The notes below the pieces were generated by a model. It saw only the letters and a program-made list of their open reading frames with translations. It did no database searches and was not told the origin of the DNA. From Candidatus Thioglobus autotrophicus (GTDB lineage: Bacteria; Pseudomonadota; Gammaproteobacteria; PS1; Pseudothioglobaceae), in NCBI GenBank assembly GCA_022448455.1, contig JAKUUR010000002.1, forward strand, positions 10,241-74,240: a stretch of 64,000 bases of DNA. The letters run 5' to 3'. Below are positions 1 through 62,610 of the stretch, in pieces. Each line of letters starts with the position of its first letter. Position 1 is the stretch's first letter. A program made the translations under genes and the position numbers.

Positions 1-906
1 CTTAATCAAACCACCGACCGCATGGTAGGCTGCATCCGAAAACTTACCATTCTTTCCTTCAAATATATTTTTACTGTTCGCAGTACTCGTTAAGCTTAAA
101 TTAATGTGAGCACCAGAACGCCAATCTCCAATTGTTGGTTTCGGCATAAAAGTAATAAACATGCCGTGATTTTTTGCAATCTCTTTGAGCAAAACCCTTA
201 AAAATACCAAACGATCAGCCATTTGAAGTACGTTTGTATAAGTAAAGTCGAGTTCAAACTGAGAATATCCTCCCTCGCAAACAACATCCTTCAAACCCCA
301 ACCTAATTCATTGAGAGTATCAATCATTTCTCCCAAAAATTCCATAGAGTCAATGCTATATTCCACATCATATCCAAAGGCTTGGCGGCGTGGTCGTAAA
401 CCTTCACCGGGTAAAGGGTCGTCATCAAAAGCTTTGACAGGTTGACCGTTTTCCCAACGCATTGCTATAAATTCGGGTTCAATACCACAAAAAGCTCTAT
501 ATCCAGCATCCTCAGCATTCTTCACAGCTCTTTTTAGTGTTTGACGGGGACATAAATTGTAAGGTTTACCCTCCCACCACAAATCAGAAAAAACCCAGGC
601 ACAGGTTTTATCCCAAGGACAGATCATCAAACTATCAAGATCTGGAACTGGAATCTGATCAGAGTCATTTGGCCCTAATTCTGGAACGAAAGAAACAGAA
701 TGAACAGCAAATTGAGGGCCTTTTCCAGCACACAACAACTCAAACTCAGATATGGGGATAGGTTTAGTTTTAGGAATGCCTAGAAGGTCTATCCAGCATG
801 AAAGAATATACTTAACACCTGCCTTTTCAAGTTTTGCTTTGGCTTCATTAACGCGCTTTTTATCTGGAAGTGCCTCTGACATTAATGTTGGATATATGTT
901 TGCCAT
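1..906 (-). CDS. Glutamine synthetase-family gamma-glutamyl-amine ligase, GmaS/GlnT-like clade (3' end runs off the window; absent from the ORF track)
   Basis: Manual translation from ATG at 906 (AGGAG RBS at about 913-917) is open to base 1: MANIYPTLMSEALPDKKRVNEAKAKLEKAGVKYILSCWIDLLGIPKTKP...PWDKTCAW...CPRQTLKR...FCGIEPEF...LGW...CEGGYSQFELDF...TFMPKP..DWRSGAHINLS. It has the GS E-x-E, E..E, FMPKP and H motifs. Confidence 0.9.
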   Translation of the reverse strand, partial: MANIYPTLMSEALPDKKRVNEAKAKLEKAGVKYILSCWIDLLGIPKTKPIPISEFELLCAGKGPQFAVHSVSFVPELGPNDSDQIPVPDLDSLMICPWDKTCAWVFSDLWWEGKPYNLCPRQTLKRAVKNAEDAGYRAFCGIEPEFIAMRWENGQPVKAFDDDPLPGEGLRPRRQAFGYDVEYSIDSMEFLGEMIDTLNELGWGLKDVVCEGGYSQFELDFTYTNVLQMADRLVFLRVLLKEIAKNHGMFITFMPKPTIGDWRSGAHINLSLTSTANSKNIFEGKNGKFSDAAYHAVGGLIK

Positions 907-922
907 TATTGACTCCTTTTGA

Positions 923-954
923 GGTATAGTTTGTTGAAAAAAAATCACTATACC
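923..954. promoter_or_regulatory. Inverted repeat in divergent intergenic region (putative operator)
   Basis: GGTATAGT (923-930), 16-nt spacer, ACTATACC (947-954), lying between the divergent GS-like and Rieske genes. Confidence 0.4.
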
Positions 955-1003
955 ATATTATTAATGATTATTTTATTTTGATAATAGCAAGAGATCTCTA
1001 CTG

Positions 1004-2374
1004 ATGAAAGATACTAAAGATAAAAATGAAACTGATTTGAAAGGTTTTGCTGGCCATAGTGTTACACTTTCAAACAAGATCGATGATGAAATAACAAGAA
1101 TTGGCCGAGGAACGCCAGCTGGTGAGTATCTTAGGCGCTACTGGCAACCAGTATTTATTTCTTCTGATTTAGCAGAACTCCCTGTTGCAATAAAAATACT
1201 TGGAGAAGAGCTTGTCTTGTTTCGAGATAAGAGCGGTCAGTTAGGACTAGTTCACAAACACTGTCCACATAGACAGGCCTCTCTGGAATTTGGAATTTGT
1301 CGTGAAAAAGGCATCCAATGCTGCTACCACGGCTGGCACTTTGATGTCGATGGCACATTGATCGAAGTTCCTGGTCAGCCAACCGCCACCGCAGATATTA
1401 TAAAAAATAAGGTGCGTCTAGGCGCTTATCCTACTTTCGAGTTTAAGGGGCTTATCTTTGCATATTTAGGCCCAATTGATGAAAAGCCAGAATTTCCAAT
1501 CTATGACAGCCTCGAATTTGAAGATATGGAAATGGTTCCTTACAAAGCACCCTTTAATTGTAACTGGCTTCAAGTACTCGATGCAATCGTTGATCCTATT
1601 CATACCGCCTTTCTTCACTCCAATATGAGTCGTCAACAATTTTCGGAAGGCTTTGGAGAGGTAGGTCAGATGGACTTCTTCGAGCGAGATAACTGGATAT
1701 TAGGCTGCAACACGCGCAGAGTTGGTGACAACGTTTGGTTTCGAATCAATGAAGTTGTTTTGCCAAATTTTACTCAAGCGGGAGCAGCCTTTTCTGCTGA
1801 TGGCACGAAACAAATCTTTTATGGGCGAAGCTCTTTCAGTCGTTGGGTAGTACCAATTGATGATGAAACGACCATCTGTTATGCTTGGGCTAATTTCGGT
1901 AAACGTGGTGATCCCCAAGCATATAACACGCCAGAAGGTCCAGAGCTGATTGAACAGGGTGAGGTTTTCGATCGACCATATGAAGAACGACAGAGGTTCC
2001 CTGCAGATAGAGAGGCTTGTGAAGGTATTGGTGCCATTAACATTCATAAAAATGAACAACTAGTGCGAAGTGACCGCGGCGTTGCTATGATGCGTCAACG
2101 AATAAGGAAGCAAATTAGAACCGTAATTGCTGGAAATCAACCCTACCTCGCCTCAAAAATTGCGGGAATGCCGATCCCCACTTATGGCGGTGACTCTGTT
2201 CTTTCTATCCCTAAAAATGAAGAAGGTGATGATGCATCTTTACTCAGTAAACTTGCACACGAGTTCGTTGACATTCAGTTTCAAGTTGATGGCAAATCGG
2301 AACAACAAAGAATTAAAATTGTAACTGCAGGATTGAAGGAAATGCAGTCAAGGCATAATTCAAAGATTAAATAA
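1004..2374 (+). CDS. Rieske non-heme iron oxygenase alpha subunit (phthalate 4,5-dioxygenase/LigXa-like family)
   Basis: N-terminal GRGTPAGEYLRRYWQP; Rieske ligands CPHR...CCYHGW; mononuclear iron motif DPIHTAFLH. Confidence 0.9.
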   Translation: MKDTKDKNETDLKGFAGHSVTLSNKIDDEITRIGRGTPAGEYLRRYWQPVFISSDLAELPVAIKILGEELVLFRDKSGQLGLVHKHCPHRQASLEFGICREKGIQCCYHGWHFDVDGTLIEVPGQPTATADIIKNKVRLGAYPTFEFKGLIFAYLGPIDEKPEFPIYDSLEFEDMEMVPYKAPFNCNWLQVLDAIVDPIHTAFLHSNMSRQQFSEGFGEVGQMDFFERDNWILGCNTRRVGDNVWFRINEVVLPNFTQAGAAFSADGTKQIFYGRSSFSRWVVPIDDETTICYAWANFGKRGDPQAYNTPEGPELIEQGEVFDRPYEERQRFPADREACEGIGAINIHKNEQLVRSDRGVAMMRQRIRKQIRTVIAGNQPYLASKIAGMPIPTYGGDSVLSIPKNEEGDDASLLSKLAHEFVDIQFQVDGKSEQQRIKIVTAGLKEMQSRHNSKIK

Positions 2375-2398
2375 ACAAATAAGGTAGGTATTGATAGC

Positions 2399-3427
2399 AT
2401 GCTAGAAGAGAGAAAAGTAAAAGTGCATTTCAAGAGCAATCATGCAGACCCTAAGTCCTTTCCTCCGACAATAGAAGGGGAATCTGTTTTCGCCTTTACG
2501 GAAGCAAGATTTAACGAAGCTCTTGAAAATTACCCCGACTTGAAAGGAAAAATTGAGCCAGTATTTGACTGGGATTTGGATAACTTTTATGAATCAATGA
2601 AAACAGCAGAGGTACTCGTATGTTGGGATTTTCCTACCGAAAACCTTGCCGAAATAGCACCTAATCTTCGTTGGATTCATATCACTGGTGCTGGTGTTGA
2701 GCACCTCTGCCCAATGGATTGGCTTCCTAATAATGTTTCTGTTGTCAACAATAGAGGTGTGCATTCAGAAAAAGCGGGTGAATTTGGCTTGATGAGTGTT
2801 CTTATGCTGCACACTCATATGCCACAGATCATTGCAAATCAACATAACAACCACTGGGAATCACTTTACTCTACTCTCATAAAGGGCAAAACTTTGTTGG
2901 TTATTGGCGTTGGAAATATTGGCTACTCTGTGACAAAAAAATGCAAAGCACTTGGAATGAATGTTATTGGTGTCAGTCGCCACGGAAAAACTTTAGAAGA
3001 TGTAGATGAAATGGTATCAGCTGATCAATTGGACGAAGTATTACCAAAAGCAGATTATATTTTTATGGCCACCCCAAATACCACTGAAACTCATAACTTA
3101 TTGGATGGAAGACGGCAATCATTAATGAAACCTGGCGTTGGTATTGTTAACGTAGGTCGCGCTGCTACAATAGACTATGTAGCCCTGGTTGATAACCTAA
3201 ATTCAGGTCATATTGGGGCTGCAATTATCGATGTATTTGACCCAGAACCGCTACCCAAAAACTCACCTTTATGGTCTGCTCCTAACCTCATGGTTATGCC
3301 ACATATTTCTGCAGATGATGGTGACACCTACATTCTACAGACTCTCGAATTGGTTCTGATGAATATGCGTCGCTACCTTGCCAACCAAGAACTCAAGAAC
3401 CTAGTGAGGCCTGATTTAGGCTACTAA
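2399..3427 (+). CDS. D-2-hydroxyacid dehydrogenase (NAD(P)-binding; glyoxylate/hydroxypyruvate reductase-like)
   Basis: GAGVEH, Rossmann GVGNIG, VNVGRA, DVFDPEPL and catalytic MPHIS motifs. Confidence 0.9.
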   Translation: MLEERKVKVHFKSNHADPKSFPPTIEGESVFAFTEARFNEALENYPDLKGKIEPVFDWDLDNFYESMKTAEVLVCWDFPTENLAEIAPNLRWIHITGAGVEHLCPMDWLPNNVSVVNNRGVHSEKAGEFGLMSVLMLHTHMPQIIANQHNNHWESLYSTLIKGKTLLVIGVGNIGYSVTKKCKALGMNVIGVSRHGKTLEDVDEMVSADQLDEVLPKADYIFMATPNTTETHNLLDGRRQSLMKPGVGIVNVGRAATIDYVALVDNLNSGHIGAAIIDVFDPEPLPKNSPLWSAPNLMVMPHISADDGDTYILQTLELVLMNMRRYLANQELKNLVRPDLGY

Positions 3428-3457: not shown

Positions 3458-4591
3458 CTAGTGGTGATCTCTGAAATATTTGGCAGCACTAATAGAAGCA
3501 AGGGTGATACTTTCAGATGGATTTGCCAATGCCTGTTCAAGTGTTAACTGTTTTGAGACAACACTGAAGACTCTATCAATGTCGTGTTTATGAATTAGTC
3601 TTTCATCATCTTCAACCGAGCCAGCAATCACAAATACTAGACATCGATTCCTCTTAGCGCATTTAGCAACGCCAATAGGTGCTTTTCCTCTTATGCTTTG
3701 ACTATCAAAACGACCCTCACCTGTGATAACTAAATCAGCGCCTTTAATATGATGCTCAAAATCCATGGCATCCAAAACGATATTGATGCCACTTTTGAGT
3801 TCCGCATTTAAAAAAGCAAGAAAAGCTGAGCCTATTCCTCCAGCTGCGCCAGAACCTGGAACTTCTGAAACATCTTTTTTTATTGTGCTAGTTAAAATGT
3901 CAGAATAACGTGTCAGATTGGCGTCCAGTTGAGCAATCATTTCACTATTAGCGCCCTTTTGTGGCGCAAAAATCACTGAAGTGCCTTGTGGACCAAGCAG
4001 TGGATTATCAACATCGCACGCTACCTCAAAGCTGACGCCTTGAAGACGAGAGTCTATTGCACCAGAGTCAATACTACTAAGAGCACTTAAACTGCCACCA
4101 CCTCGGTTCAGTTGGTTTCCTGAAATATCAAGTAGACGAACACCTAGAGCTTGTAACAAACCTGCACCACCATCATTACAAGCACTTCCGCCTAAGCCAA
4201 CAATGATGTGATTAGCGCCCTCATTCACTGCTGCCAATATGAGCTCTCCTACCCCATGACTGGTTGCAATCATTGGGTTACGATTTTCTAAAGGCACCAA
4301 GCTCAAACCACAAGCTTTGGCAACCTCAATGACTGCTGTCTTCGAATTACCAAGCATACCCCAACTTGCATTAATGACTTCTCCCATTGGATCCATCACT
4401 TGCGCCGAAAAATAATGACCCTGGGTAGCAGATATAAGCGCTTCAGTTGTGCCTTCACCGCCATCTGCAACAGGCAATTTGAGTATTTCAGCGTTTGGGA
4501 AGACGTCAACAAATCCTGCTTCTATAGCATTGGCAACTTCACTGGCAGAAAGGCTTTCCTTGAATGAATCTGGTGCTATGACTATTCTCAT
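3458..4591 (-). CDS. glxK: Glycerate kinase (GlxK/GarK family)
   Basis: MRIVIAPDSFKESLSA, PVADGGEGT, GLGGSACNDGG, GAAGG and ITGEGRFDSQS motifs. Confidence 0.95.
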   Translation of the reverse strand: MRIVIAPDSFKESLSASEVANAIEAGFVDVFPNAEILKLPVADGGEGTTEALISATQGHYFSAQVMDPMGEVINASWGMLGNSKTAVIEVAKACGLSLVPLENRNPMIATSHGVGELILAAVNEGANHIIVGLGGSACNDGGAGLLQALGVRLLDISGNQLNRGGGSLSALSSIDSGAIDSRLQGVSFEVACDVDNPLLGPQGTSVIFAPQKGANSEMIAQLDANLTRYSDILTSTIKKDVSEVPGSGAAGGIGSAFLAFLNAELKSGINIVLDAMDFEHHIKGADLVITGEGRFDSQSIRGKAPIGVAKCAKRNRCLVFVIAGSVEDDERLIHKHDIDRVFSVVSKQLTLEQALANPSESITLASISAAKYFRDHH

Positions 4592-4630: not shown

Positions 4631-5035
4631 TTAATTTTTTGGCATGTCCTCTGGGTCAATGCCAGGAACAAAAGTAATTCCTGCTTGTTGTTTCCAGTCA
4701 TGCGGATAGGCGGCATAGAAAATGACACACTTTTCATCACATTCGTATGCGATTGAATTGTCCTTAGGTATATACAAAACATCTCCAGGCGTACAAACAT
4801 ATGACTCTCCATCACAGGTCAATCTAAAGGTGCCTTCCATGCAATAAATAATTTCATCACAAGTTAATTCCCAAGGTACTGAAACTTGATTTAAAAAATT
4901 GAGACCACCACACATAGTGTCACTGACAGCACTGGTGACAAAAGGCTTGATATAGGTTTGTCCTGGCTCTAAAGTATGTAAACGGTGCTCTATATCGCTA
5001 AATTTATAGAGTTTTGGTTTATTATCTTCCATCAT
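4631..5035 (-). CDS. EutQ-like cupin protein
   Basis: Cupin signature MCGG...W.LTCDEIIYCMEG...PGDVLYIPK...FYAAYP, resembling EutQ. Confidence 0.75.
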   Translation of the reverse strand: MMEDNKPKLYKFSDIEHRLHTLEPGQTYIKPFVTSAVSDTMCGGLNFLNQVSVPWELTCDEIIYCMEGTFRLTCDGESYVCTPGDVLYIPKDNSIAYECDEKCVIFYAAYPHDWKQQAGITFVPGIDPEDMPKN

Positions 5036-5040
5036 TTTCC

Positions 5041-5466
5041 TTATTGAGTTAAGTTAAGTTTTTCATTCAATTCAACAACATAGCCATCCGGATCTTCTAT
5101 AAATGCAAGGATACGGGTTCCAGCATTCATCGGTTTAGCTGGAGTGATAATCTTTGCTCCTTGAGCTTCGAGGTCTTCAACAGCTTTATAAACGTCAGGT
5201 GTTTCGATACAGATATGACCCCAGCCATTACCTTTGTCATAATGCTCTTTTTGATCCCAGTTATATGTCAACTCCAATGCGGGGAATTCAGTCTCGGGCC
5301 CATAACCTACAAATGCATTGGTGTAGCTACCGCCAGGATAATCAGTTCTTCTCAAGACTTGCATACCCAGAATGTCACAATAAAAATGGATTGATTTTTC
5401 TAGGTCTAGCACTCTTATCATTGTGTGAGCTAATCTATAGCCATTATCATTACTTTCAGTAGACAT
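5041..5466 (-). CDS. gloA: Lactoylglutathione lyase (glyoxalase I)
   Basis: HTMIRVLDLEKSIHFY, LELTYNW, GNGWGHICI and AFIEDPDGYVVEL motifs. Confidence 0.92.
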   Translation of the reverse strand: MSTESNDNGYRLAHTMIRVLDLEKSIHFYCDILGMQVLRRTDYPGGSYTNAFVGYGPETEFPALELTYNWDQKEHYDKGNGWGHICIETPDVYKAVEDLEAQGAKIITPAKPMNAGTRILAFIEDPDGYVVELNEKLNLTQ

Positions 5467-5476
5467 ATGTCCTCCT

Positions 5477-6589
5477 TTAAATGTTTTTTGATGTTTTCAT
5501 TACAGCCTCTGCGATCATTGTTTGGAATGCACGAACGCTATCTTCCCAATGAGGCGACAGAAAGCCACCTTCCTTTGCTACTGGTGAGGCACGACCGAGT
5601 TGCATTCTTTCACAAATTGCATGGTCTTCTTTATGCACATCCCACCATAATTTTTTCATTGCATCAACTTCTTCTTTTGATAGAGTTTGTCCCTCAGTCG
5701 TATAAATAACTCTTTTCTGCTGAGTGTGCCCAGAGTCAACTGGAACATTCAAGTAGACCCCAATCTGGTCAGGGAAATATCGACCAATAATAAAGTTAGG
5801 AAATAGCGTGAGGTATCTCGAGCTGACAGAAAGGCTGCCTTTCACTTTGTCTTCTTCATCCAGTTCAATAGCGCTTCCTAGACAAACATCATCAACGATA
5901 GTGTAGTGGTCTTTGAGTGGTTGATTTGTTGTCGTACGATGAACAAACTGAACATGGTAAGGTTCAATAAAGTTTTCCATTAGAAACTTCCAATTGGTTG
6001 AAATTTCACCAAAATCAAGTGTCGCAACTGGTTTGACTTGTTCAAAGTTGATATCATCAAAATACTTAATCAAGGGTGCTGAATACTCCTCAAATTCTGG
6101 CGCATCGGCACTTAGGTTAACGAAAATCCAGTCATGCCAGATAGCCAGTCTTACTGGCTTTAGGCCATGTTTAGATAACTCAAAACCCTCAACCTGATGT
6201 TCTTCTCCAGCAAAAAAAGGAGTTGCGCAAAGCTCACCATCCAAATTATAAGTCCAAGAATGATACGGGCAACGCAACTTAGTTCCCACATTTTTTGGTT
6301 CATCAACCAATTTTAGGCAACGGTGTCTACAGGCATTATGAAAGGCGTTGATTTCACCAAGCTTGTTCTTAATAAGAATCAAGGGTTGACCGGCAACCGA
6401 ACATGTAACAACATCACCAGGCTTTTTGAGTTCATGAACAAATCCCACAAAAACCCAATTCTGAATAAATACGGTTTCGGATTCAATTTTCCAGAACTCA
6501 GAATTATTATAAGCTACAGCAGGAAGCCCATGAGCAGGTACGCTGTTCTTCAAAAAATTTGATAATAAAATGTCTATTCTTTCATTCAT
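5477..6589 (-). CDS. Rieske oxygenase alpha subunit, choline monooxygenase/CntA-like (quaternary-amine group)
   Basis: CRHR...CPYHSWTY Rieske motif; NWKFLMENFIEPYHVQFVH with Glu at the bridging position; EDHAICERMQ.G iron ligand. Confidence 0.85.
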   Translation of the reverse strand: MNERIDILLSNFLKNSVPAHGLPAVAYNNSEFWKIESETVFIQNWVFVGFVHELKKPGDVVTCSVAGQPLILIKNKLGEINAFHNACRHRCLKLVDEPKNVGTKLRCPYHSWTYNLDGELCATPFFAGEEHQVEGFELSKHGLKPVRLAIWHDWIFVNLSADAPEFEEYSAPLIKYFDDINFEQVKPVATLDFGEISTNWKFLMENFIEPYHVQFVHRTTTNQPLKDHYTIVDDVCLGSAIELDEEDKVKGSLSVSSRYLTLFPNFIIGRYFPDQIGVYLNVPVDSGHTQQKRVIYTTEGQTLSKEEVDAMKKLWWDVHKEDHAICERMQLGRASPVAKEGGFLSPHWEDSVRAFQTMIAEAVMKTSKNI

Positions 6590-6604: not shown

Positions 6605-7471
6605 TTAATCATATTTTTTACCCCATCGCTCAAGAGAAATTGTAGCTAACAAAATTATTAGCATGCCTAGCCACTGAGAATAGCCGAGTACATTTTGGAG
6701 TAGCATAACGCCAAGAATGATAGTAAAAACTGGCTCCATGTACATTACATTAGACGTGCGAACAGGACCAATTTTTGCAATAGAGTGGAAGAAAAAGTAA
6801 AAACCGCCACTCATACCTATAGCTGAAGCAATACCCCACATTAACATCGGTGCAGTCACTGATGCTATGGGTGCTGCAGTAGTCATAAAATAAATTAATA
6901 CAAAAACCGTTGCAGGTAACACCATAATATATTTAATTAAGCCCCATCCTGGCGTCACACTCTCGTGACGAGATAGAATGTTAACAAACACCTGTGCAAC
7001 TGATGCAAACAAACCCCAAAACACACCCCACAAATTCCAGTCACTAGTATCACTCTGAACCAGCACCCATATGCCCAGCAAAGAAGCCAATAGAGCCAAA
7101 ACCGATAACACATCAATTGACCTACTTTTCATTAATGAATTAGCGAAAAAAGTAATGATTGGAAACGTGTAAATTACAACCACAGCCAAACTTAAAGGAA
7201 TCAGTTTGATGGAATACATGTATGAGCCAACAAATATTGCTTGAAATATACTAATTAACACTAACCTTATACGAGCTTCCTTAGTTCTTTGTTTTTTGGG
7301 TGACTTATCTAAAACGCTAGACAAGGATAGGGTGAAAATATAGCGCACACTAAGCAACAAGAAAATGCTACCTCCTACTTTGTAAAAGTACGGAACAGCT
7401 GCCGCTGCAAGCGAGAAGCTAAAAGCTGATATTATGGCTGCAAGGACATTTGTAGAGAATTTATTGCTCAT
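6605..7471 (-). CDS. DMT/EamA family transporter
   Basis: About 10 hydrophobic segments in two EamA-like repeats; YTFPI and MEPVFTIILG motifs. Confidence 0.85.
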   Translation of the reverse strand: MSNKFSTNVLAAIISAFSFSLAAAAVPYFYKVGGSIFLLLSVRYIFTLSLSSVLDKSPKKQRTKEARIRLVLISIFQAIFVGSYMYSIKLIPLSLAVVVIYTFPIITFFANSLMKSRSIDVLSVLALLASLLGIWVLVQSDTSDWNLWGVFWGLFASVAQVFVNILSRHESVTPGWGLIKYIMVLPATVFVLIYFMTTAAPIASVTAPMLMWGIASAIGMSGGFYFFFHSIAKIGPVRTSNVMYMEPVFTIILGVMLLQNVLGYSQWLGMLIILLATISLERWGKKYD

Positions 7472-7532
7472 TGAAAATACAAATTTGCCTTGAAATGAAA
7501 GCCTGCATTTTATAACCCATTAAGAGTTATCG

Positions 7533-8258
7533 TCAAGAAGTAAATTTAATTGAAAGCTGTTGCCTTAAATAGCCTGGCTTGTTTGTTGTAATTGAAGTCG
7601 CCCCCCACTTCAATAATTGTTCAGCAGTTTGTATGTCATCAATAGCCCATGAGTGGTACTCAAAACCAGCTTTGGTGATACTGTTGACAAGTTCTTGAGA
7701 GTTTTTATTGTTTGAGCCAAGACCGTCGGCCTTGATATCTCTTAAAAAATCTAGCAACTCGTGGCTACTGACTGGCTCATTCACGTCATATAACCAGTGC
7801 GCTTTAATATGAGGCGCAATTGATTTAAAGGCTTTAATTACATGATTATCAAATGCTATGATTGAAATTTGTTCCTTTCGAAGATTCGAATTTACTATCC
7901 AATTGATCAGAGTAGGAACGATTTCAGGACCACATTTAACCTCGATAAAAATACCCTTATTGTTAGGTATTGTTTTAAAGACTTCGCTAAGTAAAGGGAT
8001 TGATTGTGGGGCTAAATCACCTTTATAGTATGTAGATGCATCGAGTTTACTTAATTCAGCATAAGTGCTTTCTGCAACAATCAGTTTTTCATCACAGGTG
8101 CGAGAGGTATCCTCATCATGAATGCAGACAATCTGCTCATCTTTGGTAAGACGAAAATCACCCTCAATCGCATCAGCGTTCTGCGACCAAGCTAAGCGAA
8201 ATGCCTCAAGAGTATTTTCTGGTGCATCATCGGAAGCACCTCTGTGAGCAACAATCAT
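7533..8258 (-). CDS. Glycerophosphodiester phosphodiesterase (cytoplasmic, UgpQ-like)
   Basis: AHRGAS..APENTL.AF, EGDFRLTKD...VCIHD, IEVK and ITTNKP motifs; no signal peptide. Confidence 0.92.
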   Translation of the reverse strand: MIVAHRGASDDAPENTLEAFRLAWSQNADAIEGDFRLTKDEQIVCIHDEDTSRTCDEKLIVAESTYAELSKLDASTYYKGDLAPQSIPLLSEVFKTIPNNKGIFIEVKCGPEIVPTLINWIVNSNLRKEQISIIAFDNHVIKAFKSIAPHIKAHWLYDVNEPVSSHELLDFLRDIKADGLGSNNKNSQELVNSITKAGFEYHSWAIDDIQTAEQLLKWGATSITTNKPGYLRQQLSIKFTS

Positions 8259-53715: not shown

Positions 53716-54825
53716 CTAAAAGCGTGAGCCCATGTAGCTCACCTGGTACTGCGCCTGAGACAACCATTCTGGGTTTACCTCTAGACCCCAACCCGGTTTA
53801 TGATCCATTAATAGCCGACCTTCAACTATTTTGAAGCTTGGCGAAAATATATTGTCTTGCCAGGGGTAATAATCTAAACCCTCAATTGAAAACTCTAAGT
53901 ACTTACCTGCGTTAGGGATAGAGCCCATAATGTGTGCAGAAAACAATGTCACCAAGGATAAGTTAGCCGAATGTAGAGTTACAGGTAAGTGGGCTTGTTT
54001 GGCTAACTTAGCAACCTCTAAGGTGCGAGTAACACCTCCCATATAACAGACATCGGGCTGTACAATATTCACCACCTGGGTATCTATCATGTGCTTCCAG
54101 ATACGCATATCGTTATCCTGCTCTCCACCACTTATATCAATATTTAATGCATCTTTAACTTGACGGGTCCAGTCAGGTTCCCAGTATGGACAAGGTTCCT
54201 CGAAATGGCTGACACCATAATCTTGTAACATGTGTCCAACCTCAATAGCTTTAGCTGGCGTGTACGCGCTATTGGCGTCCACCAGTAGTGCTACATCATC
54301 ACCTAAAACCTTGCGCACTTGTTTCACAATAGCCTCTGTACGACCAGGCCATTGATCCAAGTCATGACCACATTCTCTCCCTACACGAAATTTGAAGGCT
54401 TTATAACCATACCTCTCTTTGAGATCTAGAAAACGTTCAGCTTCAGCTTCAGGGGTGATTTCACGCTGCATACTCGAAGCATACACTGGCACAGAGTCAG
54501 TATTACCACCCAAAAGTTGACACACACTCTTGTTAGCTTTCTTGGCGTGAATATCCCAAAGCGCAGTATCTAAGCCACACAAACCACGATAAAGATAGGT
54601 TCCAGGGAACTTATGTTCCCGCTCTAACACCTCTCGGTTTAAATCAGTTATGTCGAGACCACTCCAGCCTAGTACATGAGGAGCCACTTGTCGGTGTACT
54701 ACTTGAGCACTTATGTCGGCATTGTAGGCACTAGTTTGTCCCCAACCCTCATCACCTTCGTCGGTACGCACTCGGACCAAACCAATGTATTCGTTGGTAA
54801 AGGTTTCTATGCTAATAATTTTCAT
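53716..54825 (-). CDS. Enolase superfamily enzyme, mandelate racemase subgroup
   Basis: K.FKFRVG; metal ligands VDAN, FEEP, GGEQ; QPD...H acid/base dyad; YLEF; PGWG motifs. Confidence 0.9.
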   Translation of the reverse strand: MKIISIETFTNEYIGLVRVRTDEGDEGWGQTSAYNADISAQVVHRQVAPHVLGWSGLDITDLNREVLEREHKFPGTYLYRGLCGLDTALWDIHAKKANKSVCQLLGGNTDSVPVYASSMQREITPEAEAERFLDLKERYGYKAFKFRVGRECGHDLDQWPGRTEAIVKQVRKVLGDDVALLVDANSAYTPAKAIEVGHMLQDYGVSHFEEPCPYWEPDWTRQVKDALNIDISGGEQDNDMRIWKHMIDTQVVNIVQPDVCYMGGVTRTLEVAKLAKQAHLPVTLHSANLSLVTLFSAHIMGSIPNAGKYLEFSIEGLDYYPWQDNIFSPSFKIVEGRLLMDHKPGWGLEVNPEWLSQAQYQVSYMGSRF

Positions 54826-54850
54826 AATTAATCTCGGTTTAGCTAACTCT

Positions 54851-56482
54851 TTATTTAGATATATCAGCCAAAATCAGGTCCGAAGCCTTTTCACCCACCA
54901 TAATTGTAGCGGCATTAATATTACCACATATAAGCTGCGGGAATATTGAGGCATCTGCCACTCGAAGTCCTTCTATTCCATGCACTTTAAGATTACTATC
55001 AACGACATTTTTGAGCGGATCAGGGCCCATACAGCAAGTACAAGCAGGGTGGAAAACAGTCCATGCATTGTCTCTAATATCTTCTATCATTTGAGCGTCT
55101 GATTTACACTCAGGCCCAGGTCGAAACTCATCAAGAATGACCTTGCTAAAACTCTCAGTTTGAGCTAATTGCCGCAACAACTTGACGCCCTCTAACAAAT
55201 CTTGGACATCATCGTCATGAGATAGATAGTTAGGCTCAATTATTGGCGCAACAGTTGGATCACCACTCTTTATTCGAATCTGCCCTCGTGAATTTGATTT
55301 ACAGTTTGATACCCCTAACAACATAGCTGAAAAAGGGTCTGGACTTAGCATAGCGCGCCTTCCAGGCGACTCAAGAGTATAACTTACAGGTGAAAAATAA
55401 AGTTGAATATTCGGCCCTGTAAGTCCATCCCGAGTTCGCACAAAACCACCCGACTGGTTGACACTTAAACTTAACGGACCAGTCCTAGTCAAGACATATC
55501 GAATACCTTGCCATAACTTTCCCCACCAAGGTCTCAGCTGATTATTCAAGGTTCGCACTTTACTTTTATAAATATAGTTCACCCCAAGATGGTCCTGGAG
55601 GTTTTTTCCAACGGCAGGGCTGTCATGGATAACTGAAACATTAGCTTCCTTTAGAAGTGAATCCGGGCCTATTCCAGATAACTGAAGAAGTTGTGGTGAG
55701 TTTACTGCACCAGCGCTTAATATCACTTCACGCTTGGCATTTGCTTGGTAAAGTTTGCTTGCTTTTGTGTATTCCACGCCAACAGCGCGCTTACCTTCAA
55801 ATAGAATACGAGTGACGAGAGCCTTGGTAATCACGGTAAGGTTAGAACGCTTCATAACGGGACGTAAATAAGCTCGCGAAGCAGACATACGTTGTCCCTT
55901 ATACGTGGTTATCTGGTAATGACCAACACCTTCCTGAATCTCACCATTCATGTCACCATTAAAACTGATTCCTAATTCTTCAGCTGCTGAAACAAAAGTG
56001 TCACTCAAGGGATGCAGCTGATCTGTAACGTCTGAAACATTTAGTGGCCCTCTACTACCCCGATATTGGTCGTCGCCATGTTGCCAGGTTTCCATACGTT
56101 TAAAATAGGGAAGCAAATCATTGTATGACCAGCCAGGATTACCAGCCTTTTGCCAGTCGTCAAAATCTTGAGGATTGCCTCGAACATGGACCAAAGCATT
56201 AATCGAACTAGAACCACCCAATAATTTACCTCGTGGCCAATAACTGGAACGATTATTAGCGCCGGGGCTCGGCTCCGCCATGTACATCCAGTTAACCTCT
56301 TTTTGGTAGTAGGTTTTGCCATAGCCGATAGGCATTTGTACATAAAAACGACGGTCTGTACCACCTGCTTCTATGAGTAATACTTTGTTAGAAGAATCCT
56401 TGCTGAGCCTATTGGCAAGAACACAACCTGCTGAGCCTGCACCGATAACAATAAAATCGTAATTATTCAAAAGACCAGCCAT
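54851..56482 (-). CDS. GMC-family FAD oxidoreductase (choline/alcohol dehydrogenase-like)
   Basis: GAGSAG, RGKLLGGSSSIN, SAGAVNSPQLL.LSGIG, G.NLQDH, FHPACTC, GNINAATIM motifs. Confidence 0.92.
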   Translation of the reverse strand: MAGLLNNYDFIVIGAGSAGCVLANRLSKDSSNKVLLIEAGGTDRRFYVQMPIGYGKTYYQKEVNWMYMAEPSPGANNRSSYWPRGKLLGGSSSINALVHVRGNPQDFDDWQKAGNPGWSYNDLLPYFKRMETWQHGDDQYRGSRGPLNVSDVTDQLHPLSDTFVSAAEELGISFNGDMNGEIQEGVGHYQITTYKGQRMSASRAYLRPVMKRSNLTVITKALVTRILFEGKRAVGVEYTKASKLYQANAKREVILSAGAVNSPQLLQLSGIGPDSLLKEANVSVIHDSPAVGKNLQDHLGVNYIYKSKVRTLNNQLRPWWGKLWQGIRYVLTRTGPLSLSVNQSGGFVRTRDGLTGPNIQLYFSPVSYTLESPGRRAMLSPDPFSAMLLGVSNCKSNSRGQIRIKSGDPTVAPIIEPNYLSHDDDVQDLLEGVKLLRQLAQTESFSKVILDEFRPGPECKSDAQMIEDIRDNAWTVFHPACTCCMGPDPLKNVVDSNLKVHGIEGLRVADASIFPQLICGNINAATIMVGEKASDLILADISK

Positions 56483-56622
56483 GTTTAAGTCAAATAATGA
56501 CTATATAAAATTCACACTATTGTATAAGTAATCTTTAATCATTGCTTAAATATTTTTTTAGCATTATTCACTTACAAAAAAAATTACATTTGTTCAGTGT
56601 GAAAATAAGATAAACTAAGATG

Positions 56623-56645
56623 AGCCCTCACGTGTGAGGGTTTAA
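56623..56645 (+). promoter_or_regulatory. GC-rich hairpin with T-rich tail in the leader of the ABC substrate-binding gene
   Basis: AG CCCTCA CGTG TGAGGG TT followed by TTTAATGTTTTT, ending about 30 nt upstream of ATG 56671 (RBS AGGAG). Confidence 0.45.
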
Positions 56646-56670
56646 TGTTTTTAAAATCTTAGGAGAAAAA

Positions 56671-57687
56671 ATGAAACTAATAAATAAAGTATTAGCTGTC
56701 TCAGCTATTTCACTCAGTCTTATGCCTGCATTAGCCAGTGCTGACTGTGGAAAAGCAAGGCTGGCTGATTTTGACTGGAATAGTGCAAATGTCCATACTG
56801 GCATTGTACAATTTATTCTTGAGCATGGCTATGGCTGTGAAGTTGAGACGACAAGAGGAAGTACGACACCTATTATGGCTGCTCACTATGATAGCCAACT
56901 AGATATCGTTACTGAGCTTTGGTATGACAATATTGTAACCCAGTATGATGCTGTTGAAGCGTCTGGGGTGATTAGAAATATTGGAATCAACACACCAGAC
57001 TCTCAGCAAGCGTTTTACGTGGACAGAAATACAGCTGATAAGTACAGCATAAAATCTGTATTAGATATGAACAATCCAGAAATTGCTGCATTGTTTAGTG
57101 ATCCAGAAAACCCTGATATGGGTAGAATGGTAAGCTGTATTGGAGGCTGGACTTGCTACACTATTAACCATGTCAAGCAGCGTGTCTATGGACTAGATAA
57201 GTTCTATACTAACTTTGATCCAGGTTCTAGTGGCGCATTAGCTGCAGAAATTGCAGGCGCATTTGCTAAAGATCGACCGATCTTTACCTACTACTGGGCA
57301 CCAACAGCATTGATGGGTAAGGTTGACTTAGTAAGATTAGTTGAGCCACCTTACGATGCAGCATGTTGGGGAGCAATGATGGATGTTGTTGAAGACATAA
57401 AGGCTAACGGAAAAGATGTATACAAGCCTACTTGTGCAACTGAATACAAAGACATGTCTCTAGATAAGTCTGTACTGACTGCATGGGCGGATACGCATCC
57501 AGAAGAGACAGCTTTCTTAGAAGCATATAGCATACCAACCGCAACGGTGAACAAGCTGCTAGCTTTCTATGAAGGCGAGGCTGACGGCGATATGGAGCTT
57601 CTTGCAATGGAATACTTGCAGAATAATTCTGAATGGAAGTCTTGGGTTTCAGCAGAAGTTGCTGCCAAGGTTTCAGGAGCACTATAA
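56671..57687 (+). CDS. ABC transporter substrate-binding protein, glycine betaine/proline/histidine (ProX/OpuAC) family
   Basis: Signal peptide (ASA-DC); DFDWNSA, ILEHGYGC, ELW, CIGGWTC, DPGSSGAL, YYWAPT motifs. Confidence 0.88.
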   Translation: MKLINKVLAVSAISLSLMPALASADCGKARLADFDWNSANVHTGIVQFILEHGYGCEVETTRGSTTPIMAAHYDSQLDIVTELWYDNIVTQYDAVEASGVIRNIGINTPDSQQAFYVDRNTADKYSIKSVLDMNNPEIAALFSDPENPDMGRMVSCIGGWTCYTINHVKQRVYGLDKFYTNFDPGSSGALAAEIAGAFAKDRPIFTYYWAPTALMGKVDLVRLVEPPYDAACWGAMMDVVEDIKANGKDVYKPTCATEYKDMSLDKSVLTAWADTHPEETAFLEAYSIPTATVNKLLAFYEGEADGDMELLAMEYLQNNSEWKSWVSAEVAAKVSGAL

Positions 57688-57701
57688 GCTAGATTTAATA
57701 T

Positions 57702-57733
57702 AAAAAAAAGAGCTCATTCGTGAGCTCTTTTTT
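57702..57733 (+). terminator. Intrinsic terminator/stabiliser hairpin between SBP and permease
   Basis: AAAAAA GAGCTCA TTCG TGAGCTC TTTTTT (UUCG tetraloop, U-tract). Confidence 0.85.
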
Positions 57734-57754
57734 CTTATTTTCTGAATTAGAATC

Positions 57755-58759
57755 ATGATAAAAAAGTTATTCACATATTTGGCCTTACCAGTTATTTTTA
57801 TTTGGCTGTTGATAACGAGCTTTAATGCTTCAAGATTTAGACCAGATAGCGCTGCGGAACTTTTAACGGATGCAAGCTGGCTATATAATTGGCCAAGGTG
57901 GCTAGACATCCCATTGATGAAATGGATCAATGATTGGTTTAGAGTCTTTAATCAAGAGTACGGAATGTACTTCGAGGCAGTCAATAATTTCCTTCTTGGA
58001 GCAATCCTTTCCCTGAAGAAATTCTTAATGATGTTGCCATGGCCACTTGTGATTGCTCTCGTTGTAGCGATTGTTTTCTTTTCCAGTGGTCGAAAACTAG
58101 GTACCACCGTTTTTGTTGGAATTTGTACATTTTTTATTGGCTTTCTTCACCCAAGATTTTGGGACAAAGCGATTGAAACAACCTCTATTATGATAATTGG
58201 AATACTGTTCTGTATTTTAATTGGAATACCCTTAGGAATAGCCATGTCTCGAAGCATTAGAGTTCGAAATGCCACTCTTCCTGTTCTTGACTTAATGCAG
58301 ACAATACCAAGTTTTTGTTATCTCATTCCTGGAATTATGCTTTTTGGATTAGGCGCTGTACCGGCAATCATTGCAACAGTTATTTATGCGGTTCCACCTT
58401 TAGTGCGTTTAACAGACCTTGGAATTCGCTTAGTTGACACTGAAGTCATTGAAGCAGCTGAAGCATTCGGAGCGAGTAAAAAACAAAAGTTACTAGGGGT
58501 TCAACTACCACTAGCACTTCCTAATATTATGCAGGGAATCAACCAATGCACAATGATGGCACTAGCTATGGTTGTTATTGCTTCTATGATTGGAACCAGA
58601 GGTCTTGGTGATGAAGTTTTACTTGGACTTCAACAGCTTAACGTCGGCAAGGCAACTGAAGCAGGACTTGCGATTGTACTTTTAGCAATTGTTCTAGATA
58701 GAATTACTCAAGCCTACGGTCAAAAAGTCCAAGATAGAAATAAGCCACCAGAAAAATAG
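57755..58759 (+). CDS. ABC transporter permease, ProW-like
   Basis: PVLDLMQTIPSFCYLIP, EAAEAFGAS..Q.L..VQLPLALPNIMQG EAA loop. Confidence 0.92.
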   Translation: MIKKLFTYLALPVIFIWLLITSFNASRFRPDSAAELLTDASWLYNWPRWLDIPLMKWINDWFRVFNQEYGMYFEAVNNFLLGAILSLKKFLMMLPWPLVIALVVAIVFFSSGRKLGTTVFVGICTFFIGFLHPRFWDKAIETTSIMIIGILFCILIGIPLGIAMSRSIRVRNATLPVLDLMQTIPSFCYLIPGIMLFGLGAVPAIIATVIYAVPPLVRLTDLGIRLVDTEVIEAAEAFGASKKQKLLGVQLPLALPNIMQGINQCTMMALAMVVIASMIGTRGLGDEVLLGLQQLNVGKATEAGLAIVLLAIVLDRITQAYGQKVQDRNKPPEK

Positions 58760-58769
58760 CCTTTAATCA

Positions 58770-59801
58770 ATGTCAAAAATAGAAATAAGAAATATTTATA
58801 AGATATTTGGAAACCATCCTGATCAAATTTTACCCATGGTAAAAGAGGGTGCAAATAAAGAGCAGGTCATGGAAGAAACTGGCCACACTGTTGGCCTAGA
58901 CAATGTCTCTATATCAGTCAAAGAAGGTGAAATTTTTGTTTGTATGGGATTGTCTGGTTCAGGAAAATCAACTTTAATTAGACATATTAATAGACTCATT
59001 GACCCTACTGCAGGTCAAGTTACAGTTGACGGTGTTGATGTACTAAGTTTAGATGACAAGGAAATATTAGATTTCCGAAAAAAGACAATGAGTATGGTTT
59101 TCCAGCGTTTTGGACTTTTTCCTCATAAAACAATTATTCAAAATGTTGCTTATGGCCTTGAAATACAGAAAGTACCTGAGGATCAGAGAATAGAAATTGC
59201 CCAAGGCCAAATAGATTCGGTTGGATTACAAGGTTTTGAGAATCAATACCCTGCTCAACTATCTGGAGGCATGCAGCAAAGGGTCGGTCTAGCAAGAGCT
59301 CTTGCAACAGACCCTCAAATCCTTTTAATGGACGAAGCCTTTAGTGCATTGGACCCTCTAATTAGAAGTGATATGCAAAAACAATTAATAGAGCTTCAAT
59401 CTAAACTCAAAAAAACCATTGTCTTTATTACTCATGATCTTGATGAATCCCTGAAATTAGGGGACCATATAGGAATATTAAATGGCGGAAGATTAGTTCA
59501 AGTCGGTCGCCCAGAAGATATTATCATGAATCCTGCTGATGACTACGTTAAAGCATTTGTTAAGGATGTTAATCGCTCTAAAGTGTTGAGAGCTCAAACA
59601 GTTATGACTAAAAAGGATCAGTTTGATACAACAAATATCAACCCATCCACTATATACAAGATAGATGAAAATACTGTGATTGAAGAGATCATCCCTAAAG
59701 TATTAAGAGAGAGATGCACTATGAATGTAGTCGATAAGAGTGGCAATACAAAAGGGTATATTACATCTGATGAGTTATCTAAGGCTTTAACGAAACATTA
59801 A
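58770..59801 (+). CDS. ABC transporter ATP-binding protein, ProV-like
   Basis: GLSGSGKST, LSGGMQQRVGLARAL, DEAFSALDP, ITHD motifs; short CBS-like tail. Confidence 0.94.
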   Translation: MSKIEIRNIYKIFGNHPDQILPMVKEGANKEQVMEETGHTVGLDNVSISVKEGEIFVCMGLSGSGKSTLIRHINRLIDPTAGQVTVDGVDVLSLDDKEILDFRKKTMSMVFQRFGLFPHKTIIQNVAYGLEIQKVPEDQRIEIAQGQIDSVGLQGFENQYPAQLSGGMQQRVGLARALATDPQILLMDEAFSALDPLIRSDMQKQLIELQSKLKKTIVFITHDLDESLKLGDHIGILNGGRLVQVGRPEDIIMNPADDYVKAFVKDVNRSKVLRAQTVMTKKDQFDTTNINPSTIYKIDENTVIEEIIPKVLRERCTMNVVDKSGNTKGYITSDELSKALTKH

Positions 59802-59806
59802 GTTAG

Positions 59807-60595: not shown

Positions 60596-60612
60596 CTACA
60601 GGGATGTAGTTA
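60593..60612. terminator. Hairpin between convergent SDR and cytochrome c4 genes
   Basis: TAACTACA GGGA TGTAGTTA; AT-rich stem, no clear U-tract. Confidence 0.4.
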
Positions 60613-60648
60613 TTCAGTTGTAATGCTTAAAAGTTACCAGCAAAGGAT

Positions 60649-61296: not shown

Positions 61297-61379
61297 TCTA
61301 AATCTCCAAAAAATTCCACGAAGTTATACTTGAATATTAACGGTTCCATTAACTTTTATTTATCAAGATAACGGAAAAA

Positions 61380-61700
61380 CTACTCTCTAATCCCTTGAGT
61401 AGAAAGGTATTCGGCAATAGAGTCCTCAAACCCTTCTGCCATTGGAGCCATAGCATTCATAATCGCATTTTGACGTTCGCCTGACTGAAATTGCTCTAAT
61501 TGTTGCACTATCCATTCGGCATCTCTGCCAGCTAGCGAAGGAACATCTTCATCGGTTGAATTCCCTCCCGGACCGTGGCAACTAGAACAGCCCAAAGCTT
61601 CAAACATAGCCTCACCTTCGCTCTTTGCTTCTTCTGATATAGAGCCCAGTGAAAAAGCTAATGCCATTATAGAAAGGATTAACAATAAAATCTTTTTCAT
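61380..61700 (-). CDS. Monoheme class I cytochrome c (c553/c554-like)
   Basis: Signal peptide; CSSCHG; PSLAG; IMNAM axial Met. Confidence 0.9.
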   Translation of the reverse strand: MKKILLLILSIMALAFSLGSISEEAKSEGEAMFEALGCSSCHGPGGNSTDEDVPSLAGRDAEWIVQQLEQFQSGERQNAIMNAMAPMAEGFEDSIAEYLSTQGIRE

Positions 61701-62571: not shown

Positions 62572-62610
62572 AAAATCTTCCTTAATTTTGAGATTATTAT
62601 CATGTTACTA

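Follow-up and report, generated by a model that had tools for sequence, protein, structure and literature searches.

The 64,000-nt stretch of DNA analyzed here (hereafter, the window) comprises positions 10,241 to 74,240 of the forward strand of contig JAKUUR010000002.1 from Candidatus Thioglobus autotrophicus (GCA_022448455.1), a member of the Pseudothioglobaceae. At its left edge lies the 5' portion of a gene for a glutamine synthetase (GS)-fold protein, denoted GSx, which stands head-to-head with genes for a Rieske oxygenase (Rieske456) and a 2-hydroxyacid dehydrogenase (HADH342), followed by a glycerate kinase gene and by genes for a cupin, a VOC protein and a second Rieske oxygenase, Rieske370 (Table 1). 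In an earlier note on this stretch, GSx, Rieske456 and the dehydrogenase were combined into a ligase-oxygenase-dehydrogenase route for a possibly aromatic or heterocyclic amine. Comparative analysis leads us to a different assignment, in which GSx is grouped with Rieske370 and most likely forms an amide with a small amine that is not aromatic, as part of a pathway linked to the catabolism of methylated amines.

Table 1. Features at the left end of the window
Feature	Positions	Strand	Remarks
GSx, predicted GS-fold ATP-dependent carboxylate-amine ligase of the "Arg-swap" clade (R263/G320, V209)	1..906	-	codons 1-302 of 472; runs past the left window edge
Divergent intergenic region, GSx/Rieske456	907..1003	.	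97 bp; overlapping promoter-like hexamers, + strand 934-961, - strand 984-957
Rieske456, alpha-only Rieske non-haem-iron oxygenase, phthalate-dioxygenase/MdpJ-like, 456 aa	1004..2374	+	PF00355, 65 bits
HADH342, D-isomer-specific 2-hydroxyacid dehydrogenase	2399..3427	+	PF02826, 168.8 bits; 24 bp downstream of Rieske456
Glycerate kinase	3458..4591	-	present or absent among close strains
EutQ-like small cupin, 134 aa, GSx operon member	4631..5035	-	Pfam and synteny
Glyoxalase-I-like VOC protein, GSx operon member	5041..5466	-	TIGR00068, 138.8 bits (cut-off 120)
Rieske370, GbcA/Stc2/CntA-type alpha-only Rieske monooxygenase	5477..6589	-	co-varies with GSx across lineages

The GSx gene and its flanks

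As the earlier note had pointed out, the GSx gene is missed in lists of open reading frames; the reason is that its frame runs off the window edge. Translation of the segment yields 302 codons with zero stops, open at the edge, and the product matches Pfam family PF00120 (Gln-synt_C) at 133.8 bits (cut-off 24; E about 1e-39 to 9.8e-39). This fragment is 100% identical to the N-terminus of public 472-aa proteins (P0001), and the public annotation of GSx proteins is just "glutamine synthetase (family protein)." An AAGGAG Shine-Dalgarno sequence located 7 nt 5' of the ATG at position 906 favors the 472-aa start over a 486-aa GTG call. The 97-bp divergent region is present as previously described, and the hexamers that it contains on both strands are consensus matches only; with a total of 12 promoter-like sites in the region, compared to 20.4 in shuffled sequences, the promoter scan carries no weight. 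The GSx/Rieske456 junction is specific to the lineage of the window.

The genes to the left of the window were read from public contigs that carry an identical GSx gene and extend 3.5-9 kb beyond the window edge. In order, these encode GmaS (gamma-glutamylmethylamide synthetase), a MetX-like alpha/beta hydrolase, the tRNA-binding protein CsaA, an ABC exporter, a MOSC protein and methyltransferases. The GmaS is canonical: it consists of 437 aa, scores 662.3 bits against TIGR03105 (cut-off 470) and 629 bits against RhGmaS (7cql), and carries the GAGFAGF and GNGCHSH motifs. The glutamine amidotransferase and reductase genes that a leftward extension had been expected to reveal did not appear; GmaS, the hydrolase and CsaA occupy this flank, and no glutamine amidotransferase, Rieske beta subunit or reductase was found within the window or 7-9 kb past its left edge.

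Family placement and active-site residues of GSx

For family assignment, whole-protein scores of the full-length protein P0001 were compared with the curated NCBIfam cut-offs. GSx remained below the cut-off for GlnA (TIGR00653; 302.2 bits vs 429.15), for the GmaS/GlnT type III glutamate--ammonia ligase (TIGR03105; 375.9 vs 469.6) and for the gamma-glutamylputrescine synthetase PuuA (NF045547; 194 vs 650). Its best matches in the PDB are 9qur, a "glutamate--methylamine ligase" (243 bits), and RhGmaS, 7cql (217 bits). GSx is 32% identical over the full length to the canonical GmaS encoded next to it and contains the motifs GKGPQFAVHS and WRSGAHIN, in place of which the adjacent GmaS has DGAGFAGFA and GNGCHSH.

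The residues of GSx were mapped onto RhGmaS via a HMMER alignment, with the residue roles taken from the published description of that enzyme (PMC7948447). In RhGmaS, D177 is proposed to deprotonate methylamine in an amine pocket that consists of Y174, Q175, D177, N188 and W189, and G231 and R288 hold the alpha-amino/alpha-carboxylate end of a glutamate analogue (PMC7948447). GSx keeps the metal, ATP and phosphoryl-transfer residues (E143, E145, E211, E218, H267, E361, R347, R352 and R363), among which E145 corresponds to the residue that contacts the amino group of glutamate and R363 to the gamma-carboxylate Arg; K48 (Lys30' in RhGmaS) and Y179 (Tyr147) are kept as well. The amine pocket is changed throughout (Y174 to K206, Q175 to D207, D177 to V209, N188 to D220, W189 to F221), with K206, D207, V209 and D220 invariant within the GSx clade, and one adenine contact is also altered (H237 to N269). 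At the alpha-end of the glutamate site, G231 is replaced by R263 and R288 by G320, that is, the arginine is swapped between two positions, which we take to correspond to G265 and R321 of E. coli GlnA.

The two replacements are perfectly coupled. Among 229 full-length proteins of the GS family that were drawn from an exhaustive representative search and a second homolog search and aligned with MAFFT, 115 have the R..G combination, 114 have [GANST]..R, and none is mixed. All R..G proteins fall into one clade of a neighbor-joining tree (125 leaves), and the closest relatives outside the Arg swap are 43-46% identical and retain the Asp. The signature KEEY[HK]DVEEDFYRSGHNSNGERRER is constant from 100% to about 60% identity, with minor changes down to 54%. 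Above 50% identity to GSx, a single full-length representative (56%) was found among 1.8 billion, and the scores then drop fast into the generic GS space. A word-indexed search with the GSx fragment yielded 120 near-identical (at least 96%) Thioglobus proteins and no diversity, and the diversity analyzed here was obtained from the representative search, a P0125-seeded search and a genome scan.

The altered residue pattern is unchanged from 100% to about 55% identity beside a bona fide GmaS, which argues for a distinct, selected specificity. Judging by conservation, it is almost certain that GSx functions as an ATP-dependent ligase whose specificity is different and selected, and it appears to be a diverged paralog of gamma-glutamylmethylamide synthetase that founds its own subfamily. 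The NCBIfam scores agree with the earlier verdict that the protein is neither a true GlnA nor a true GmaS, and the PDB matches with its placement closest to GmaS-type enzymes; the motif substitutions quoted at that time (GPQFAVHS, RSGAH) are real.

Gene neighborhoods of GSx across lineages

Gene neighborhoods were compared in a sample of one genome per GTDB species, which yielded 80 loci (numbered with the prefix L), along with further contigs and three plasmids of cultured Roseobacters; synteny was scored by tblastn and Pfam. The carriers of GSx belong to Pseudothioglobus (SUP05 heterotrophs), the HIMB59/AEGEAN-169 group, Arenicellales and Roseobacters, and at least three of them are in culture with complete sequences. 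Clustering of GSx at 80% identity produced 13 lineages, in which partners within 10 kb were counted. Rieske370 (at least 45% identity) is found near GSx in 7 of the 13 lineages, mostly in a single operon, and the alpha/beta hydrolase also in 7, followed by the VOC protein (6), the cupin (5) and an AsnC regulator (5). The gmaS/mgs genes were counted in 2 lineages (the two largest), and Rieske456 in 2 as well.

The head-to-head arrangement of GSx and Rieske456 is restricted to loci at 93-100% GSx identity (L001-L010), and a Rieske456 homolog within 10 kb is missing in 11 of the 13 lineages; the adjacency of the ligase to Rieske456 is therefore not conserved, contrary to what the earlier proposal presupposed. 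Sister Pseudothioglobus species (GSx 83-86% identical), including two complete genomes, lack the head-to-head pair. In these, the first part of the locus reads GDPD, EamA, (AMP-ligase), glycerate kinase, [HADH, Rieske456] on the minus strand, and the plus strand continues with Rieske370-VOC-cupin-AsnC-GSx-mgsA-mgsB-mgsC-gmaS-hydrolase-CsaA. In 16-17 loci of sister species (for instance L016, 11521-14427), GSx and gmaS are separated by the mgsABC genes. At the L001-L010 locus (compare L001 11461-11567) and anywhere in the 64-kb window, mgsABC and AsnC are missing, and the sublineage of the window has gmaS with no adjacent N-methylglutamate (NMG) synthase; sox genes were also sought in the window, and none was found. 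In the lineage of the window, then, the Rieske370-VOC-cupin block has moved (now 4631-6589, minus strand) and AsnC and mgsABC have been lost at the locus. As a result of this rearrangement, GSx now stands head-to-head with an unrelated Rieske456-HADH module.

In more distant lineages, the same partners recur. L091/L092 (a 2-Mb contig) contain a compact AsnC-Rieske375-VOC-cupin-GSx-hydrolase operon and no methylamine genes, and L087-89 have the same AsnC/Rieske/VOC/cupin/GSx/hydrolase gene set spread over 8 kb. On a plasmid of Leisingera thetidis BMJM1, the operon includes a TauT/NitT-type ABC transporter between GSx and the hydrolase. Arenicellales have the arrangement cupin-Rieske370-VOC-GSx, directly followed by a soxB/D/A/G-type heterotetrameric oxidase of the sarcosine/NMG-oxidase type. 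About 40 loci from HIMB59-type single-amplified genomes read GS1-mgsABC..gmaS(-)-Amt-class-I amidotransferase-GSx-hydrolase, followed by housekeeping genes. In L032, GSx is flanked by a Fer2-FNR reductase gene and by a 2-hydroxyacid dehydrogenase gene that lies 28 bp upstream and whose product is 29% identical to the dehydrogenase of the window. We define a GSx operon by the R263/G320/V209 signature together with at least two of the following within 10 kb: a Rieske370-type oxygenase, VOC, cupin, PRK07581 hydrolase and AsnC. The window contains GSx, Rieske370, VOC and cupin, with the hydrolase located just past the edge and AsnC absent, and the set recurs in L016, L085, L087, L091 and L095. No description of the GSx clade or operon turned up in literature searches.

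Several loci hold further GS-family genes. The HIMB59-type locus L043 (266-12394) carries three paralogs within 12 kb, along with an Amt transporter and a stand-alone class-I amidotransferase: GS1, which is GmaS-like and located by mgsABC, a bona fide GmaS (639.7 bits against TIGR03105) and GSx. In Ca. P. ubique, two "glnT" genes are located within SAR11_1304-1317 (PMC3870248). A search for a PuuD-type hydrolase associated with the GSx clade gave no such case, the HIMB59 neighbor being a generic class-I amidotransferase; in a GS and PuuD pair of Rhodococcus opacus, the GS is not of the Arg-swap class. A Devosia contig (L090, 1-12564) contains a distant Arg-swap GS-like gene (39% identity) that keeps Asp at position 209 and has a Rieske oxygenase gene on one side and, on the other, a cluster comprising two creatininase-family genes, a DDAH/arginine-deiminase-family gene, DUF1989 genes and an NMT1-type ABC transporter; this neighborhood suggests a role for the wider Arg-swap clade in handling compounds that are guanidino- or methylamine-releasing. 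Two metagenome-assembled genomes titled "Bifidobacterium breve" (L070, L071) contain a GSx homolog (54-55%) and a further GS paralog; given that L069, which groups with them, comes from an Actinomycetota metagenome-assembled genome, this label looks wrong.

Conserved partners of GSx

Rieske370, a protein of about 370 aa with Rieske and Ring_hydroxyl_A domains, best matches GbcA (160 bits over the N-terminal half, a score that falls far short of the 670 required for that family), 3n0q, Stc2 (3vca) and CntA (6y8j, residues 7-331). The alpha/beta hydrolase scores 429-456 bits against PRK07581 (cut-off 332) and 195-201 bits against PDB 5d6o and 5e4y (CgHle and MekB). It shares the alpha/beta-hydrolase fold, the MetX architecture and the PRK07581 score with MetX-like esterases/acyltransferases but remains below the cut-off for true homoserine O-acetyltransferases (154 vs 500), and its family is annotated "hypothetical protein." An aromatic meta-cleavage pathway consisting of a Rieske dioxygenase, a VOC extradiol dioxygenase, a meta-cleavage product hydrolase and a GS-like enzyme, as for aniline, was considered and rejected because the VOC protein passes the glyoxalase-I model, the hydrolase is MetX-like (BphD at E=1e-3 only), and Rieske370 groups with GbcA, Stc2 and CntA.

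The cupin is 85-91% identical between Pseudothioglobus and distant lineages, with only 62-67% identity for GSx, the Rieske protein and the hydrolase, and thus appears to be under unusually strong constraint for a small protein. In every Pseudothioglobus locus, genes for an EamA-family transporter and a glycerophosphodiester phosphodiesterase (6605-8258) border the island and are placed between the catabolic genes and the nuo operon. Elsewhere in the window, a second osmolyte-type locus (53716-63906) encodes an enolase-superfamily (MR/MLE) protein, a choline-dehydrogenase-like GMC oxidoreductase, an OpuAC-type betaine ABC transporter (binding protein, permease and ATPase), an SDR, an enoyl-CoA hydratase and an ATP-grasp_5 acyl-CoA-ligase-type protein that is truncated by the window end.

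The Rieske456-dehydrogenase module

Rieske456 carries the motifs CPHRQ..CCYHGW (CxH...CxxH) and DPIHTAFLH (DxxHxxxxH), and its closest solved relatives are the phthalate 4,5-dioxygenase alpha subunits 7fhr and 7fjl (about 146 bits, E about 1e-41), which, along with the Pfam matches in Table 1, substantiates the initial calls of a phthalate-dioxygenase-family Rieske protein and a 2-hydroxyacid dehydrogenase. The protein belongs to the phthalate family, and no beta-subunit gene adjoins it. A tblastn search of the window with a Fer2-FNR reductase returned just one weak 97-residue match at 28.8-29.1 kb. The best NCBIfam model for HADH342, D-2-hydroxyacid dehydrogenase, gives 182 bits where 400 would be required, and no equivalog was assigned. 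The glycerate kinase gene is missing in the near-identical loci L002, L007 and L010, and one metatranscriptome contig joins position 3431 directly to 4633.

On a plasmid of Alisedimentitalea scapharcae, orthologs of Rieske456 (54.5%) and the dehydrogenase (54.8%) are adjacent, behind their own AsnC regulator, and are followed by a 2-hydroxy-3-oxopropionate (tartronate-semialdehyde) reductase gene; the GSx, hydrolase and AsnC genes of the same plasmid are 15 kb away. Rieske456 and HADH thus make up a separate conserved module. Rieske456 is also 41% identical to the product of a Rieske gene that precedes a PDR/VanB reductase gene on a plasmid of Methylibium petroleiphilum PM1; by annotation and gene order, with no locus-tag match, this pair is probably the tert-butanol hydroxylase MdpJ/K (Mpe_B0555/B0554). 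The partners of Rieske456, namely HADH together with glycerate kinase or tartronate-semialdehyde reductase, suggest that a C3 hydroxy-acid is formed, so that the module looks like one in which a small aliphatic hydroxy compound is hydroxylated toward glycerate, not like an aromatic dioxygenase.

In Pseudothioglobus, the GSx and Rieske456 modules are at most about 4 kb apart; on the Alisedimentitalea plasmid and its near-duplicate in strain M382, they lie within 15 kb. A looser metabolic link between the two is possible because the modules are close together, their AsnC regulators are paralogous, and GSx in L032 is flanked by a 2-hydroxyacid dehydrogenase and a Fer2-FNR reductase. A Rieske456-like subfamily (41-42%) occurs in a conserved ALDH-Rieske-hypothetical-hypothetical-DUF1116/AllG set (L099 6252-13069; L085 16535-21382) that adjoins sarcosine-oxidase genes in Ruegeria conchae and Arenicellales, with an amidase gene after the set in Ruegeria conchae. 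These genes belong to a different gene set, are probably not orthologs of Rieske456, and are not strong support for a GSx-Rieske456 association.

Transcription of the locus

Marine metatranscriptome contigs from several studies span the GSx, Rieske456 and dehydrogenase genes. In three runs, the contig depth, a rough measure, was 178-224, 21-66 and 106-171 over GSx; 204-284, 67-74 and 113-119 over the cupin and VOC genes, resembling GSx; and 38-88, 8-19 and 16-35 over Rieske456, such that GSx was 3-5 times higher than Rieske456.

Comparison with known systems

GSx resembles GmaS (TIGR03105; RhGmaS, 7cql; 9qur) in fold, length class and the metal, ATP and phosphoryl-transfer residues, as well as in its locus, beside a true gmaS and, in the sister-species operon, with mgsABC. 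It differs from GmaS in the absence of GAGFAGF and GNGCHSH, in about 11 extra residues before the Y179 loop, and in that it is also found in genomes and operons without the N-methylglutamate pathway. The combination of a GS-like ligase and an oxygenase in one catabolic operon is shared with the Puu (PuuA/PuuD, putrescine), Ipu (IpuC-IpuD, isopropylamine) and Atd/Tdn (NpaA1) systems of amine catabolism and, by analogy, masking of the amine as an amide before oxidation would be the most economical reading of the GSx operon. The operon differs from the Puu and Atd systems in having no PuuD/AtdA2-type hydrolase, beta subunit or dedicated reductase; its oxygenase is of the GbcA/Stc2/CntA type and is neither an aromatic ring dioxygenase nor a P450, and the Puu, Ipu and Atd systems have no counterpart to its VOC protein, cupin and MetX-like hydrolase. 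With regard to the aniline-type system (AtdA1-A5/TdnQTA1A2B), the locus in the window lacks the glutamine amidotransferase, the beta subunit of the two-subunit (alpha and beta) Rieske dioxygenase and the reductase. GSx is about 29% identical to the products of GS-family genes on Delftia and Achromobacter plasmids, which are presumably of the tdnQ type.

GbcA and Stc2 catalyze N-demethylation of glycine betaine and proline betaine, respectively, and CntA cleaves the C-N bond of carnitine. Rieske370 is, like these, alpha-only and similar in length and domains; in contrast to them, it has no adjacent GbcB/CntB-type reductase gene except in L032. Rieske456 shares the alpha-only phthalate-family organization with MdpJ/MdpK and phthalate 4,5-dioxygenase but, unlike MdpJ/MdpK, has no reductase gene beside it and is paired with a D-2-hydroxyacid dehydrogenase. 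Neither oxygenase points to an aromatic or heterocyclic amine as the substrate, as had been considered: the nearest annotated relative of Rieske456 is probably MdpJ/K, and the conserved partner of GSx is of the N-demethylase type.

Interpretation

We put at roughly 60% the probability that GSx is the ligase of the Rieske370 operon and is tied to methylated-amine metabolism, with its adjacency to Rieske456 being incidental. Streamlined marine bacteria have the GSx operon interspersed with genes of the N-methylglutamate pathway, namely mgsABC-gmaS in both Pseudothioglobus and HIMB59 and a soxBDAG set of the sarcosine/NMG-oxidase type in Arenicellales. The data show the family placement, the residue pattern, the synteny, the rearrangement and the expression; we infer the substrates and every chemical step as follows. 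GSx, acting via an acyl-phosphate in an ATP-dependent carboxylate-amine ligation, would use the gamma-carboxyl of glutamate, or of a closely related acid, to form an amide with a small aliphatic amine that is not monomethylamine. Rieske370 would then hydroxylate the carbon adjoining the amide nitrogen, and the resulting carbinolamide would collapse to an aldehyde and a simpler gamma-glutamyl amide or glutamine; Rieske N-dealkylation at amide nitrogens has precedent in the caffeine and phenylurea demethylases. The VOC protein, the cupin and glutathione chemistry may handle the released aldehyde, and the nitrogen would be left as glutamine or gamma-glutamylmethylamide, usable by MgsABC and N-methylglutamate metabolism. 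Rieske456 and the D-2-hydroxyacid dehydrogenase, with glycerate kinase alongside, would make or consume a C3 hydroxy-acid.

Several observations weigh against this assignment. The HIMB59 loci have no Rieske, VOC or cupin gene within 10 kb of GSx, which implies that the oxygenase step is not universal, and no reductase for Rieske370 or Rieske456 is encoded within the window. The Roseobacter plasmid operons sit among genes for guanidino compounds (ureohydrolase, arginine-deiminase-family) and osmolytes and include a TauT/NitT-type importer, a context that argues for an imported organic substrate, not volatile methylamine. The Arg swap affects the alpha-end of the glutamate site, and the acid substrate may not be glutamate at all. 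The roles given to the VOC protein, the cupin and the hydrolase are guesses, and contig depth is a poor proxy for expression.

A three-gene pathway comprising GSx, Rieske456 and the dehydrogenase, like those for aniline (AtdA/TdnQ) or isopropylamine (Ipu), in which the amine is glutamylated, the conjugate hydroxylated by the Rieske protein and the product oxidized by the dehydrogenase, appears quite unlikely. It accommodates the head-to-head genes and their common 97-bp region with promoter-like hexamers on both strands, the proximity of the modules (always within about 4 kb in Pseudothioglobus and 15 kb on the Alisedimentitalea and M382 plasmids), the AsnC regulators of the two plasmid modules, each about 50% identical to the lone Pseudothioglobus AsnC, and the dehydrogenase gene (29% identity) located 28 bp upstream of GSx in L032. 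The 41% identity of Rieske456 to the probable MdpJ, a methyl-group hydroxylase of small alcohols, also fits, such methyl hydroxylation being the chemistry that IpuD performs on gamma-glutamyl-isopropylamide. However, the adjacency is seen only at 93-100% GSx identity, with no Rieske456 homolog within reach in 11 of the 13 lineages; Rieske456 and HADH make up an independent unit with its own regulator and tartronate-semialdehyde reductase; the locus has no PuuD/AtdA2-type amidotransferase or hydrolase and no reductase; the metatranscriptome depth of GSx follows that of the cupin and VOC genes, not that of Rieske456; and the substrates of D-2-hydroxyacid dehydrogenases are free 2-hydroxy acids rather than alcohols in amide linkage. 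From the earlier proposal, the family placements stand, whereas the tight three-gene pathway falls, with synteny assigning GSx to Rieske370.

The other two alternatives concern the substrates of GSx itself. That it is a second GmaS/GlnT isozyme or a true glutamine synthetase, acting on monomethylamine or ammonia and kept beside GmaS for kinetics or regulation, is very unlikely: GSx scores below every curated equivalog cut-off, D177 is replaced by Val with Q175, N188 and W189 changed as well, the Arg that binds the alpha-carboxylate of glutamate is relocated, this pattern is constant from 100% to about 55% identity while GSx coexists with a bona fide GmaS, and GSx occurs also in operons without any gmaS. 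Such an isozyme would, on the other hand, be compatible with the 32% full-length identity to the adjacent GmaS and the 243-bit match to 9qur, the retention of all phosphoryl-transfer and metal residues, the shared operon with gmaS and mgsABC in Pseudothioglobus, and the retention, as in GlnA, of a flap glutamate (E329). Unlikely, too, is an acid substrate other than L-glutamate, whereby the swap would reshape the pocket for N-methylglutamate, beta-glutamate, aspartate or a catabolic intermediate and GSx would serve as an amide synthetase or in an amidase-bypass step, not in gamma-glutamylation. The swapped positions are those that hold the alpha-amino/alpha-carboxylate end in RhGmaS (G231, R288), the two changes are perfectly coupled across 229 sequences, GSx is not accompanied by a gamma-glutamyl hydrolase of the PuuD type, and the conserved downstream partner is an esterase/acyltransferase-type hydrolase rather than an amidase, all in line with a different acid. 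Nevertheless, E145 and the gamma-carboxylate Arg R363 are conserved, the pocket Arg is retained from another loop and could still bind the same alpha-carboxylate, and the linkage to mgsABC fits a gamma-glutamyl product, given that MgsABC consumes a gamma-glutamyl amide.

Within the preferred assignment of GSx to the Rieske370 operon, a more specific version, in which the two enzymes process dimethylamine, or a different small alkylamine of the secondary or branched kind, by way of glutamylation, is doubtful. With dimethylamine, GSx would make gamma-glutamyl-dimethylamide, and Rieske370 would N-demethylate this compound to gamma-glutamylmethylamide and formaldehyde, with the former feeding MgsABC. 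The location of GSx directly upstream of mgsABC-gmaS, the Asp to Val replacement in the amine pocket, the formaldehyde/glutathione-type neighbors (the GloA-like VOC protein, and GFA or GST in some loci) and the DDAH-family gene next to the Arg-swap paralog in Devosia are consistent with this version. It offers no explanation for the Arg swap, the hydrolase or the cupin, though, nor for the HIMB59 loci that have no nearby Rieske gene or for the TauT-type importer and the ureohydrolase, arginine-deiminase-family and osmolyte genes around the Roseobacter versions. The dmmDABC genes are missing from SAR11 and abundant marine Gammaproteobacteria despite the presence of tmm, tdm and gmaS, which constitutes a metabolic bottleneck, and tmm and tdm sequences have been attributed to Ca. 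T. singularis (PMC5520151). If true, the dimethylamine route would supply the "missing" step in marine bacteria that lack dmmDABC (Pseudothioglobus, HIMB59 and perhaps SAR11 relatives).

Implications

The locus described here illustrates that a divergent gene pair in a single strain can be a recent rearrangement and that comparative synteny can reassign the partner. GS-like amide ligases are the entry point of several amine catabolic routes, and gmaS serves as a marker for methylamine use in the ocean; GSx could confound surveys based on gmaS or glnA. The label "glutamine synthetase family protein" masks a distinct function that is expressed in bacteria ranking among the most abundant in the sea, and the linkage of GSx to the N-methylglutamate pathway makes the processing of methylated amines in bacteria lacking dmmDABC testable.

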